Of a stretch of 33,076 bases of DNA, positions 12,245-33,076 are shown in pieces. Source of the stretch: Candidatus Bipolaricaulia bacterium (lineage in GTDB: Bacteria; Bipolaricaulota; Bipolaricaulia; JBHIAT01). The stretch spans positions 1-33,076 of the forward strand of contig JBHIAT010000020.1 of assembly GCA_046758705.1 (NCBI GenBank), in the 5' to 3' direction. A program made the position numbers and the translations under genes. How positions within the stretch are numbered: position 1 is the stretch's first letter; each line of letters starts with the position of its first letter. The notes under the pieces are model-generated. The model did not search any database and was not told the origin of the DNA. It was given only the letters and a program-made list of their open reading frames with translations.

Positions 12245-14326
12245 ATGACCACCTCTCCCAATCTTTCTGAATCTACGTTTGAGCCTTTTACATTGGTCGA
12301 TCTCCTCCGCTGGAGAGCACTCCACCAGCCTAACCAGCGGGCCTATACCTTCCTGACAGATGGGGAAACAGAAGAAGTCAGCCTAACCTATGGAGAGTTG
12401 GACCGGCAGGCCCGGGCCATCGGGGCCTGGCTTCAGAGCTTGGCGGCAACTGGAGAGCGTGCGCTTTTGCTCTACCCGCCGGGTCTGGAATACATTGCTG
12501 CATTTTTCGGGTGCCTGTACGCCGGAGTCGTTGCCGTTCCCGCTTATTCACCCCGACCTAACCGACCCATGTCTCGGATCCAGGCGATTGTGGCAGATGC
12601 GCAGGCAACGTTGGCTTTCACTACCACAACGATCTTGTCCAGGATGGAGCGTTGGTATGTCGATGTTCTAGACCTGAGATCTCTGAACTGGTTGGTGACC
12701 GACAAAGTCGCCAGCGACCTGGCGAAGGGGTGGCGGGATCCAAAGGTCAACGATGAAACCCTGGCTTTTCTCCAGTACACTTCGGGCTCTACGGCTGTGC
12801 CCAAGGGCGTGATGCTCACCCACGGCAACCTGCTCCACAATTCGGCCCTGATCCATCGGGTGTTCGAGCATACGCCCGACAGCCGGGGCGTGAGCTGGCT
12901 GCCGCCCTACCACGACCTGGGGCTCATCGGAGGGGTGCTGCAACCTCTCTACGGTGGGTTTCCGATGACACTTATGTCACCGGTCAGCTTCCTGCAACAC
13001 CCCGTCCGGTGGCTGAAAGCCATCTCCCGTTACAAGGCCACCACCAGCGGTGGGCCGAACTTCGCCTATGACCTGTGCGTCCGCAAGATCATCCCTAACC
13101 AGCGAGCGACCCTCGACTTGAGCAGCTGGGACATGGCGTTTAATGGCGCTGAGCCCATCCGCCGTGAGACCTTGGAGCGGTTCGCAGTGGCCTTTGAGCC
13201 CTGTGGCTTCCGTCGAGAGGCCTTTTACCCTGGCTACGGACTCGCTGAGGCAACTATGTTCGTTTCCGGTGGCTTGAAAGTCGCTCCACCCACCGTTCAG
13301 ATCTTCCAGGAGACAGCACTGAAGCACGACCAGGCGGTTGCAGCCTCCGAAAGGGATGGGGGCACCCAGACGCTTGTGGGCTGCGGTCAGGCCCTGCTGG
13401 ACCAAAAGATCCTCATCGTTCACCCCGAAAAGTTGACCCCGTGCTTGCCCGATCAAGTGGGCGAGATCTGGGTATCGAGCCCCAGCGTTGCCCAGGGTTA
13501 CTGGAACCGCCCTGAGGAGATGGAACGGACTTTCAACGCGTACCTATCCGATACGGGTGAGGGCCCGTTTCTACGCACCGGAGATCTGGGGTTTGTTTAC
13601 GATGGGGAGCTATTCGTTACCGGTCGACTCAAGGACTTGATCATCATCCGGGGCCACAACCATTACCCTCAGGACATCGAACTGACGATAGAACGGAGTC
13701 ACCCAGCGCTGCGGCCGGGCTGCAGTGCAGCGTTTTCAGTAAACGCGGCCGGTGACGAGCGGCTGGTGATTGTTCAGGAGGTCGAGCGTCATGACCGGAA
13801 TCCGAATGTAGATGAGGTAGCTGGGGCCATCCGACAATCGGTGGCTGAAGATCACGATGTGCAAGTTTATGCCGTGGTACTGATCAAGTACGGGAGCATC
13901 CCTAAGACCTCCAGCAGCAAGATTCAGCGGCACGCCTGTCGGGCCGGGTTCCTGGAGGGGAGCCTGAATGTGGTGGGAGCGTGGCGGGCAACTGTAGCTG
14001 AGGCAAGTTCCAGAGACAGAGAGCCGGTGGACGTGCCGAGAAGGAGCGCGGCGGACATCGAAGCCTGGCTGGTGTCACAGATCTCAGGGCGGTTGGGCAT
14101 GGATCCTGACGATATAGACATCGGCCAGCCCTTTGTCCAATATGGTCTGGATTCAATACAGGCGGTGAGCATCGCCCAGGAACTCGAAACGTGGCTGGGT
14201 CTTTCTCTCTCTCCCACTCTGGCTTGGGATTATCCCACAATTGAGGCGCTTTCCCGGCATCTGATCGAGGAGTTCAAGACTTCAGAGTCGGCTGTGGAAG
14301 CCGATACGACTGCATCAGAAAGGTGA
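12245..14326 (+). CDS. Fatty acyl-AMP ligase fused to ACP (FAAL-ACP loading protein)
   Basis: AFLQYTSGSTAVPKGV, SWLPPYHDLGLIG, GGPNFAY, YGLAEAT, FLRTGDLG, GRLKDLII.RG.NHYPQDIE and PKTSSSKIQR. C-terminal ACP GLDSI...WDYPTI. Confidence 0.93.
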   Translation: MTTSPNLSESTFEPFTLVDLLRWRALHQPNQRAYTFLTDGETEEVSLTYGELDRQARAIGAWLQSLAATGERALLLYPPGLEYIAAFFGCLYAGVVAVPAYSPRPNRPMSRIQAIVADAQATLAFTTTTILSRMERWYVDVLDLRSLNWLVTDKVASDLAKGWRDPKVNDETLAFLQYTSGSTAVPKGVMLTHGNLLHNSALIHRVFEHTPDSRGVSWLPPYHDLGLIGGVLQPLYGGFPMTLMSPVSFLQHPVRWLKAISRYKATTSGGPNFAYDLCVRKIIPNQRATLDLSSWDMAFNGAEPIRRETLERFAVAFEPCGFRREAFYPGYGLAEATMFVSGGLKVAPPTVQIFQETALKHDQAVAASERDGGTQTLVGCGQALLDQKILIVHPEKLTPCLPDQVGEIWVSSPSVAQGYWNRPEEMERTFNAYLSDTGEGPFLRTGDLGFVYDGELFVTGRLKDLIIIRGHNHYPQDIELTIERSHPALRPGCSAAFSVNAAGDERLVIVQEVERHDRNPNVDEVAGAIRQSVAEDHDVQVYAVVLIKYGSIPKTSSSKIQRHACRAGFLEGSLNVVGAWRATVAEASSRDREPVDVPRRSAADIEAWLVSQISGRLGMDPDDIDIGQPFVQYGLDSIQAVSIAQELETWLGLSLSPTLAWDYPTIEALSRHLIEEFKTSESAVEADTTASER

Positions 14327-14329
14327 GCA

Positions 14330-32600: not shown

Positions 32601-33076
32601 CGGAGTATATGGTTCCCTCGGCGTTTGTGGTGCTCGACGCCCTGCCACTGACACCCAACGGCAAGGTGGATCGCCGCGCACTGCCTGCACCCGACCCGAC
32701 CCGGCCTGAGCTGGAACGCACCTTTAACGCGCCTCGGACCTCCATTGAGGAGAGGGTCGCGGGCATCTGGACCGAACTGCTCGGTGTGGAACAGGTCGGT
32801 GTCTACGACAACTTCTTCGAATTGGGGGGCCATTCGCTGCTGGCCACTCAGGTCATCTCCCGGGTGCGCGACACTTTCCAGGTGGAGCTGCCTCTACGTC
32901 GCCTGTTTGAACTGCCTACCGTCGCCGGTCTGGCTGAGAGTATTGAAGCGACCCGTCTGACGGGGCAAGGCCTAAACGTCCCGCCCATACGGCCCGTCCC
33001 ACGGGAAAAATACCTGCCGCTCTCCTTTGCCCAGGAGCGATTGTGGTTCCTCGATCAGCTGATGCCCGACAGTCCC
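29615..33076 (+). CDS. NRPS, partial (C-A-T-C...), first A domain predicted to activate serine; runs off the window end
   Basis: Manual translation from ATG 29615: [78 protein letters not shown]-domain GGHSL, then LSFAQERLWFL. Not in the supplied ORF track. Confidence 0.95.
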   Translation, partial: MSDISRRISELPPEKRKLFELLLREQGVDVGRSFIVPRSRESDTFPLSFGQERLWFLDQLDPSHPVYNESGAIRLQGSVNLAALEQSLNEIVRRHEVLRTTFATVDGQPVQVIAPALTLSLPVVDLRELPEAEQEAEVRRRVTEEAQRPFDLARGPLMRVTLLRLGKRDHVLLLTIHHIVCDGWSIGILVRELAMLYKAFSTGNPSPLPELPIQYADFAHWQREWLQGEVLESQLSYWKQQLGDDPPVLQLPTDRPRPPVQTFRGATQFFELPKALYESLKALSRREDVTLFMTLLAVFQALLSRYSGQEDIIVGTPIAGRTRAELEALIGFFVNTLVLRSDLSGDPSFRELLGRVRNVTLNAYAHQDLPFEKLVEELQPERSLSHTPLFQVMFQLYNAQMSTLEVDTGTTVLELNPFQLYNVQMPALEAPEVTLSSLEADTGTTVSDLNLLMVEEAQGLRGWIEYSTDLFDGATIERMLGHFQTLLEGVVADPDRRLSDFPLLTETEQHQLLLEWNDTQADYPQDSCLHQLFEAQVEKTPDAVAVVFEDEQLTYQALNDRANQLAHHLQSMGVGPEVRVGMFMDRSLEMVIGLLGILKAGGAHVPLDPAYPKERLAFMLQDANVPVLLTQQQLLERLPEHSAEVICLDTDWQTIAQQSADNPTSDTTPNHLAYVIYTSGSTGTPKGVMIPHRGICNRLHWMQSAYRLTETDRVLQKTPFSFDVSVWEFFWPLLTGARLVVARPDGHRDNAYLVQLMAEQQITTLHFVPSMLQLFVEEPELEVGYSLKRVICSGEALPIGLQERSFARLDAETELHNLYGPTEASIDVTCWACERDSQLRTVPIGRPIDNTQIYILDAHLQPVPISVPGELYIGGVSLARGYHGRPALTGERFIPDPFSDEPGARLYKTGDLARYRPDGNIEFLGRNDDQVKIRGFRIEPGEIEAVLGEHPAVHEVVVLAREDAPGNRRLVAYLVVDQEPAPSTTELRRFLQQKLPEYMVPSAFVVLDALPLTPNGKVDRRALPAPDPTRPELERTFNAPRTSIEERVAGIWTELLGVEQVGVYDNFFELGGHSLLATQVISRVRDTFQVELPLRRLFELPTVAGLAESIEATRLTGQGLNVPPIRPVPREKYLPLSFAQERLWFLDQLMPDSP
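30794..30967 (+). repeat. Imperfect in-frame tandem duplication within the NRPS C domain
   Basis: FQLYNAQMSTLEVDTGTTVLELNP (30794-30865) precedes FQLYNVQMPALEAPEVTLSSLEADTGTTVSDLNL (30866-30967). CGACACCGGGACGACGGTC is shared exactly. Confidence 0.9.

Follow-up and report, generated by a model that had tools for sequence, protein, structure and literature searches.

The window analyzed here, a stretch of 33,076 nt, is the entire contig JBHIAT010000020.1 (C20) of Candidatus Bipolaricaulia bacterium, and it carries the first part of a cluster of polyketide synthase (PKS) and nonribosomal peptide synthetase (NRPS) genes. The assembly (3.7 Mb in 319 contigs; 93.9% complete, 4.7% contamination) is a binned metagenome-assembled genome (MAG). 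The open reading frame (ORF) list and Pfam scans revealed, all on the + strand, a fatty-acid--AMP ligase fused to an acyl carrier protein (FAAL-ACP), a first PKS (PKS1), a free-standing condensation protein (free C), an MbtH-like gene, a second PKS (PKS2) and an NRPS (NRPS1). This order had been proposed in an initial annotation and was borne out by the Pfam domain calls. The same annotation described the NRPS as condensation, adenylation for serine, thiolation, condensation, or C-A(Ser)-T-C. These domains are present, but NRPS1 does not end there: it runs on into a second contig (C19) as C-A(Ser-like)-T-C-A-T-R, where R is a reductase domain.

The FAAL-ACP didomain (positions 12242 to 14326; 694 aa, free-standing; Pfam AMP-binding, 224.9 bits, and PP-binding) stops 3 nt ahead of the PKS1 start. 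Its top single-enzyme NCBIfam matches were fatty-acid--AMP ligase models, every one of them below the curated cut-off. PKS1 (14330 to 21001; 2223 aa) has its ketosynthase (KS) from residue 6, followed by acyltransferase (AT, with HAFH), dehydratase (DH), enoylreductase (ER), ketoreductase (KR) and ACP; the motifs DTACSS, HGTGT, HxxxGxxxxP and, in the ER, GGVG are present. It ends in an acidic tail (20900 to 20998), and its stop overlaps the free-C start as ATGA (20998 to 21001). The free C (20998 to 22452; 484 aa in an open frame of 488 aa that lies between the PKS1 stop and the start of MbtH) gave Condensation as its only Pfam domain (PF00668, 387.5 bits). Its residues 1 to 32 form a one-helix-type leader, and its C-terminus lies inside a C-A linker. 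The MbtH-like gene (22445 to 22693, alternative start 22427; PF03621, 84.2 bits, cut-off 27) is the only intact copy in the cluster, and at its 3' end it passes into what is left of a FAAL gene, the FAAL scar. PKS2 (22912 to 29622; ~2236 aa) has the domains KS-AT(GQSMG, YASH)-DH-ER-KR-ACP; the ATG at 22912, behind the Shine-Dalgarno sequence GGAGGGGG, is a likelier start than 22876. Its tail ends in ...LDKLDQLSEEEVKAMLEEKRLAAEDKENVHHE and overlaps NRPS1 by 8 nt (29615 to 29622). The window holds the first 1154 aa of NRPS1 (29615 to 33076), namely a leader of the long type, MSDISRRISELPPEKRKLFELLLREQG..., then C-A(Ser-like)-T and the opening ~20 residues of the second C domain (C2). Carrier Ser motifs are present in the carrier domains of the cluster.

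C20 stops on a codon boundary at "...LMPDSP", and C19 opens in frame 1 with "VYNLSF...", where the C domain carries on. Three vent-metagenome runs of a single study, which may be the samples of origin, gave Logan contigs that also contain the window end, and two of these contigs extended 2110 and 1737 nt beyond it. Both carried a diverged copy of 31352 to 31473 (26 mismatches) 1467 nt past the window end, and one of them (that of X1) additionally had a copy of 31623 to 31681 (10 mismatches) 1738 nt past it. Since C19 has the same copies at positions 1468 and 1739, with identical mismatch counts, we conclude that C19 adjoins C20 with zero gap. A chimeric assembly at the junctions between free C, MbtH and scar was considered and rejected: none of the 31-mers of region 20801 to 23100 recurred elsewhere in the assembly, which makes such a chimera unlikely.

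NRPS1 continues as (C)-A-T-R (C19 1 to 4320; 1154 + 1440 aa in total), and its R domain has the motifs TGATGFLG and YxxxK. It is followed by a stub of a second MbtH copy (29 codons; C19 4320 to 4406) and by PKS3 (FAAL-ACP-KS-AT-DH-KR-ACP; 2587 aa), which has a PKS1-type tail. NRPS2 (C-A-T) overlaps the PKS3 stop by ATGA, opens with a free-C-type leader and ends after the T domain, which only ~17 residues follow. A discrete thioesterase (TE; 260 aa, GHSMG motif), which looks like type II, and a HetI-like phosphopantetheinyl transferase (PPTase) at the end of the cluster come next, and then a TrpB-like gene and trp genes. The first gene of the cluster encodes a 4HBT (hotdog) thioesterase (11600 to 12178, + strand; PF03061, 65.9 bits) with a weak YciA-like NCBIfam match below cut-off. 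The cluster thus measures ~39.6 kb, from window position 11600 to about C19 18100, and the window carries its first 21.5 kb; apart from the 4HBT gene starting at 11600, window positions 1 to 11600 are occupied by housekeeping or unrelated genes. With a FAAL and ACP, modular PKS and NRPS proteins with carriers, and a release function, it is a FAAL-primed hybrid PKS/NRPS lipopeptide cluster, real and uncharacterized, from an uncultured hydrothermal-vent bacterium. Because a second NRPS module, a reductase, a third FAAL-PKS-NRPS line and a TE lie on C19, the product logic differs from that seen in the window only.

The acidic tails on PKS1 and PKS2 and the common leader type on the genes that follow and overlap them, both pointed out in the initial annotation, read as it quoted them, and the overlaps are there. 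Such a tail/leader pair was found at all three overlapping PKS-to-C junctions of the cluster, and also in two other loci, L107 and L008. The leaders of free C and NRPS2 share 90% identity, against only 46% for the C bodies behind them. Furthermore, over 44 aligned residues the tails of PKS1 and PKS3 agree at 57%, with one identical 10-residue stretch; for the PKS1 and PKS2 tails the identity is 37%. From these comparisons we infer that the PKS1 and PKS3 tails and the free-C and NRPS2 leaders would constitute one docking code, and PKS2 and NRPS1 a diverged one.

Locus L107, a relative from metagenome data, serves as a natural control for the partner of PKS1. Its PKS-b shares 62% identity with PKS2 across 2226 aligned aa, is fed by an upstream PKS, and carries an N-terminal docking helix of ~40 residues, "LPPLQRALFALKETRARLDAIE". 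PKS2 has no docking helix at this place; about 29 nonhelical, Gly/Pro-rich residues precede its KS. At the PKS-to-NRPS junction of L107, the tail core is near-identical to that of PKS1, and the NRPS leader, "LSPQEKRALLAQLL", is of the free-C type. In L008 (Nostoc), a FAAL-ACP-PKS / NRPS locus, the tail/leader pair is like that of PKS1 and free C. Since PKS2 lacks the L107-type KS helix and the PKS1 tail is of the type leading to an NRPS, transfer from PKS1 to the free C is favored over transfer from PKS1 to PKS2. The earlier suggestion that PKS1 hands off to the free C and not to PKS2 is therefore most likely correct, in view of the third pair (PKS3/NRPS2), the absence of a helix on PKS2, the FAAL scar and L107.

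As to the kind of docking, only ~32 residues lie ahead of the first C-domain motif of the free C, which does not agree with a beta-hairpin docking domain; longer N-termini resembling such domains were recognized by eye in L046, L176, L125 and L163. No solved chain aligning to residues 1 to 32 of the free C was found. A complex prediction for the PKS1 ACP-tail and the free C, run without controls, scored 0.25 and 0.24, below the mark of 0.32, and weighs on neither side.

The free C is a C domain without A or T in the same protein, a candidate for the Zmn19, Bamb_5915 and VibH kind of trans-acting C enzyme, and its catalytic motif HHIVSDG (HHxxxDG) and conserved core are intact. Using 115 full-length homologous C domains and 81 columns at least 95% conserved among them, we found that the free C departs at 3 columns (homolog median, 1; 90th percentile, 4; maximum, 6). 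In the same test, the first C domain of NRPS1 (C1) departed at 1 column, C2 at 2 (plus 5 columns on the other contig) and the C domain of NRPS2 at 15. Moreover, the terminal branch of the free C (0.27) is similar to those of C1 (0.24) and C2 (0.32). Without signs of decay, the free C looks functional. It is 68% identical to C1 and 69% to C2, and its closest solved structures are the Txo2/Txo1 C domains, which are of the ordinary elongation type. The C domain of NRPS2 (HHIAIDF; 46% identical to the free C) differs in subtype from free C, C1 and C2.

The three PKS lines are related by descent. At the nucleotide level, C20 12225 to 15293 and C19 5417 to 8518 (FAAL-ACP-KS) are 75.8% identical, the segment spanning the PKS1 tail and the free-C leader is 77.5% identical to that spanning the PKS3 tail and the NRPS2 leader, and PKS2 (22998 to 27119) is 72% identical to PKS3. 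The free-standing FAAL-ACP and the FAAL-ACP fused to PKS3 are 74.6% identical (tblastn). The FAAL scar between MbtH and PKS2 (22638 to 22748, + strand; about codons 23 to 69, out of frame with MbtH) is 65% identical to FAAL1 residues 33 to 69 over 37 aa (tblastn), 85.9% identical to 12366 to 12443 over 78 nt, and 84.6% to C19 5558 to 5635 (blastn). It is noncoding, ~15% diverged, and has lost an internal segment. On C19, the MbtH stub leads straight into a 181-bp copy of the 4HBT gene's 3' end (together C19 4320 to 4576; copy, 4396 to 4576) that is 92.8% identical to the original. Compared with the 75.8% identity of the neighboring FAAL coding sequence between the units, this value, in a nonfunctional fragment, suggests a recent recombination or gene conversion. 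About 840 bp (C19 4577 to 5417) lie between the 4HBT fragment and the FAAL of PKS3, at a place where the window has only ~46 bp; they contain a 245-aa open frame on the minus strand that belongs to no Pfam family.

From the paralogous segments and the scars, the repeated unit was [4HBT-FAAL-ACP-PKS-NRPS-MbtH]. The cluster arose from three tandem paralogous units, later trimmed by deletions to one copy of each accessory gene. Unit 2 lost its 4HBT and FAAL-ACP, unit 3 most of its 4HBT, with the MbtH gene ahead of it broken, and the NRPS of unit 1 is represented by the free C alone, which stops within the C-A linker. A recent copy of C2 as the source of the free-C body was also considered, and dropped because in the tree the free C groups with C2 no more closely than with C domains of foreign phyla.

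Gene and domain content, contiguity, paralogy, scars and the pairing pattern of tails and leaders, as observed above, are the basis on which we propose three parallel PKS-to-C hand-offs. PKS1 would pass its chain to the free C, PKS2 to NRPS1 (C-A(Ser-like)-T-C-A-T-R) and PKS3 to NRPS2 (C-A-T, with the discrete TE nearby), and in each case translational coupling links the PKS to a gene whose product starts with a one-helix leader ahead of a C domain; the free C would off-load the PKS1 chain onto a nucleophile from another line. We put the probability of this reading at somewhat less than one half (roughly 0.45). In its first step, the FAAL-ACP would be loaded with a free fatty acid, to which PKS1 would add one fully reduced C2 unit. 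The tail-leader contact would then recruit the free C, which would condense the PKS1 chain onto the nucleophile of the other line; candidate acceptors are a carrier-bound Ser or aminoacyl group, or a released product. PKS2, which has lost its own FAAL-ACP, would be primed in trans by the remaining free-standing FAAL-ACP, the most likely source of its starter. Docking specificity, activity and acceptor of the free C, and trans-priming of PKS2 are what we infer in this scheme. The free C probably grafts an extra lipid chain.

A fuller version of this scheme, which we consider unlikely as a whole, would have two or three parallel tails (saturated straight, saturated alpha-methyl and unsaturated), with one FAAL-ACP serving two PKS modules and a docking-addressed free C attaching a second tail to a dipeptide aldehyde or alcohol that contains Ser. 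This would yield a multi-tailed lipopeptide, and the two docking codes would be a natural minimal example of orthogonal PKS-to-C addressing. The product may be one multi-acylated lipopeptide, a set of monoacylated congeners, the product of a re-threaded single line, or the product of unit 3 alone. The single doubly acylated lipopeptide with an ester or side-chain amide that the initial annotation suggested is thus one candidate, which the data do not single out.

Several points weigh against a hand-off of the PKS1 chain to another line by the free C. We can name no acceptor for the free C, and the starter source of PKS2 is a putative one. A code common to PKS1/PKS3 and free C/NRPS2 would leave these pairs uninsulated from each other. 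The best solved match of the PKS1 ACP-tail is PpsC, whose tail "ELSDEEMDLLADLVDASE" is similar and which is followed by another PKS; the tail of PKS-a of L107, which feeds a PKS, is of the same general form as well. Given these two tails, the acidic form is not exclusive to PKS-to-NRPS junctions. The tree does not place the free C specifically with C1 and C2 (support, 0.6), so that an origin within the cluster is unsupported by it, and the free C ends in a C-A linker beside two deletion scars and could be a by-product of deletion. Comparative data do not help: a match to the FAAL-ACP was found in none of 60 relatives, and the layout FAAL/PKS/free C/MbtH/PKS in none of 80 FAAL-anchored loci (best FAAL identity, 54 to 65%; domain calls by single-sequence probes, flanks limited to 10 kb). 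A metagenome scan queried with the free C yielded 77 loci with a best identity of 69%, and among them no ortholog of the cluster that would show conservation of the free C under selection. Finally, the assignment to this host rests on a binned MAG with 4.7% contamination.

An alternative that we regard as unlikely keeps the transfer from PKS1 to the free C but lets the free C act on the acceptor of C1, the Ser on the first T domain of NRPS1, so that two monoacylated congeners, one straight and one alpha-methyl, would be made in place of a single doubly acylated molecule. With 68% and 69% identity to C1 and C2, the free C may keep a similar acceptor site, and recruitment of several partners by one docking motif is known (PMC9113145). 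Furthermore, C1 has an unusual 24-residue insertion that is absent from the free C. On the other hand, the free C is no closer to C1 and C2 than to C domains from other phyla, and there is no sign that a T domain lying within NRPS1 is accessible in trans.

A linear line from FAAL-ACP through PKS1 and PKS2 to NRPS1, with two successive extensions and with the free C as a leftover or in an unrelated role, is improbable. The gene order is colinear with it except for free C and MbtH, a loader belonging to PKS2 itself is missing, and the PKS-feeding subunits PpsC and PKS-a of L107 have similar acidic tails. Against this stand the missing ~40-residue KS docking helix, which the 62%-identical, PKS-fed PKS-b of L107 has, and the FAAL scar, which shows that PKS2 descends from a self-primed unit. 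In addition, the PKS1 tail is of the type leading to an NRPS, and the PKS1 stop overlaps the free-C start.

There is only a slim chance that the lines are re-threaded, with FAAL-ACP-PKS3 feeding NRPS2, NRPS2 feeding PKS2, and PKS2 feeding NRPS1 with reductive release, while FAAL-ACP, PKS1 and free C form a side branch. Such an arrangement would account for the missing PKS2 loader and for the lack of a cis release domain in NRPS2, whose last domain is T (the nearby 260-aa TE is discrete and type II-like). However, the NRPS-to-PKS junctions of L158, L182 and L159 have basic tails of roughly 30 to 45 residues after the T domain, compared with only ~17 residues in NRPS2, and re-threading would require a noncolinear gene order with no visible docking pair. 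Equally remote is a decaying cluster, in which deletions would have killed units 1 and 2, leaving FAAL-ACP-PKS3/NRPS2/TE as the only productive line and the free C as an inert relic: two deletion scars flank MbtH, C19 has a broken MbtH and a 4HBT fragment, and no orthologs were found to show conservation, but the ORFs of 2223, ~2236, 484 and 1154 + 1440 aa are intact while the FAAL scar is ~15% diverged, the free C has neither lost more conserved residues than expected nor evolved at a raised rate, and the losses are complementary, with one copy of each needed function left.

We next consider what the parallel hand-offs would deliver. The AT motifs are GHSIG...HAFH in PKS1 (AT1) and GQSMG...YASH in PKS2 (AT2). 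By the motif rule, which would assign malonyl to AT1 and methylmalonyl to AT2, these fit the extender units named in the initial annotation. The AT2 active site (~24880 to 24900) reads GQSMG, whereas AT1 and the AT of PKS3 (AT3) have GHSxG. AT3 has VAAH compared with HAFH in AT1 and YASH in AT2, and PKS3 lacks an ER; since VAAH deviates from the usual motif, the AT3 extender unit is not callable.

The A-domain codes were extracted by hand. The code of the first A domain of NRPS1 (A1), DVWHISLIDK, is Ser-like, being one residue off the Ser code, and agrees with the Ser specificity claimed earlier. For the A domain of NRPS2 (A3), DIWEITADDK, a literature search with the code and near variants gave no match beyond chance text matches. 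The second A domain of NRPS1 (A2) has the code DAWTTTGIGK, which is identical at 9 of 10 positions to the kynurenine code of DptD module 2 (PMC9113097). With regard to kynurenine, a tryptophan 2,3-dioxygenase (PF03301) was not found in the 93.9%-complete assembly, and two Cyclase-family genes are present elsewhere in it. Directly downstream of the PPTase lies the TrpB-like gene (TrpB2-type; C19 18257 to 19705), and after it come trp genes. Those with a Pfam check are anthranilate synthase components I and II, trpD and a second TrpB-type PALP gene; the others were named by position and ORF size. This neighborhood is suggestive in that it fits the aromatic or kynurenine-like code of A2, but a coincidence is possible.

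Condensation domains of this kind are rare in the phylum. A comparable C domain was found in 7 of 184 genomes (species representatives, this one included), and among these 7 only the genome of the window has the C domain in a frame of ~488 aa. The closest relatives among those searched belong to the same class at best, and nearly all have genomes of 1.1 to 2.3 Mb, compared with 3.7 Mb here. The nearest protein relatives of the cluster belong to cyanobacteria, Acidobacteriota and Chloroflexota, a pattern suggestive of horizontal acquisition or of mis-binning. Two other contigs of the assembly, C275 (L003) and C292 (L004), carry the NRPS pieces A-T-C-A and C-A, 54 to 69% identical to NRPS1 and free C; since C19 adjoins C20 directly, they must belong to another NRPS locus or another strain.

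Free-standing C proteins with such a leader exist elsewhere: P0049, P0021 and P0087 (nearly the same leader). A search of 5 cyanobacterial genomes for a free-standing gene of P0049 found none, nor was it seen at E values of at most 1e-190 in 301 genomes of that order, with up to 5 candidates scored per genome. In the 77 metagenome loci, 12 closed C-only ORFs were detected in 11 loci. At least three of them, in L116, L175 and L155, look like frameshift splits or fragments; that of L182 follows a terminal KS-AT-ACP module.

Some further features of the window were recorded. The 24-residue insertion in C1 (30794 to 30965), seen in comparison with eight other C domains, contains internally repeated peptides, FQLYNxQM and LExDTGTTVxxLN; the short repeats are visible to blastn, and Tandem Repeats Finder called no array at 30600 to 31100. 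A 45-bp imperfect palindrome (84%) is located at 9655 to 9699, between a metallophosphoesterase gene and a FecR-domain gene. Promoters and terminators, scanned for in 11300 to 30000, occurred at chance level (4 versus 5.0±2.4 and 13 versus 12.6±3.3).

Comparison with characterized systems places the proposed hand-off among known principles. In zeamine biosynthesis of Serratia plymuthica, the free-standing C enzyme Zmn19 joins the ACP-bound chain of the last PKS module to a separately made nucleophile (PMC5811116). Zmn19 and the free C proposed here have in common a free-standing C and the convergent assembly of parallel pathways encoded in one cluster; the likeness drawn here is one of role and layout. 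However, the zeamine acceptor is a polyamine from a polyunsaturated fatty acid synthase-like system, while the branches here are FAAL-primed single-module reducing PKSs. In enacyloxin release, the free-standing C enzyme Bamb_5915 is recruited to a carrier protein by a docking element for an intermolecular condensation (PMC9113145). There, a beta-hairpin docking domain, which is structured as alpha-beta-beta-alpha-alpha and has a ~20-residue linker to the C domain (PMC9113145), binds a short linear motif, in contrast to the one-helix leader of ~32 residues and the longer, acidic helical tail in our cluster.

Helical docking pairs include class 2, which forms an eight-helix bundle, and the PAX type, a three-helix bundle where a peptidyl carrier protein (PCP) meets a C domain; class 2 docking is reported for PKS and hybrid systems of cyanobacteria and myxobacteria (PMC9113145). 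The tail/leader pair has the layout of these types, with a carrier tail and an N-terminal helix, except that here a PKS ACP would feed the acceptor C domain. In lipoinitiation of the daptomycin type, a C domain acylates the first amino acid with the fatty acid that a FAAL has put on an ACP (PMC9113097). In contrast, a full reducing PKS module stands between ACP and C here, three times, and one C has no A-T partner. In the laxaphycin system, FAAL/PKS initiating enzymes are common to two NRPS lines (PMC7524897). This sharing is a precedent for one FAAL-ACP serving two PKSs, which we deduce here from the FAAL scar. Laxaphycin biosynthesis, as described there, diverges from one start into two peptides, while in our cluster several lipid starts may converge.

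Free-standing C enzymes that join separately made parts are already known from Zmn19, and the cluster is a variant of such convergent assembly mediated by a free C. In a lineage with rare NRPS genes, this cluster without a known product is a well-documented lead, not a discovery. It records the deletion-driven merging of tandem assembly lines, in which one FAAL-ACP, one MbtH and one thioesterase were kept. If the free C indeed grafts a separate acyl chain, convergent lipid attachment would be programmed by short tail and leader helices alone, and two naturally orthogonal codes would lie side by side, useful for the engineering of PKS-NRPS junctions.

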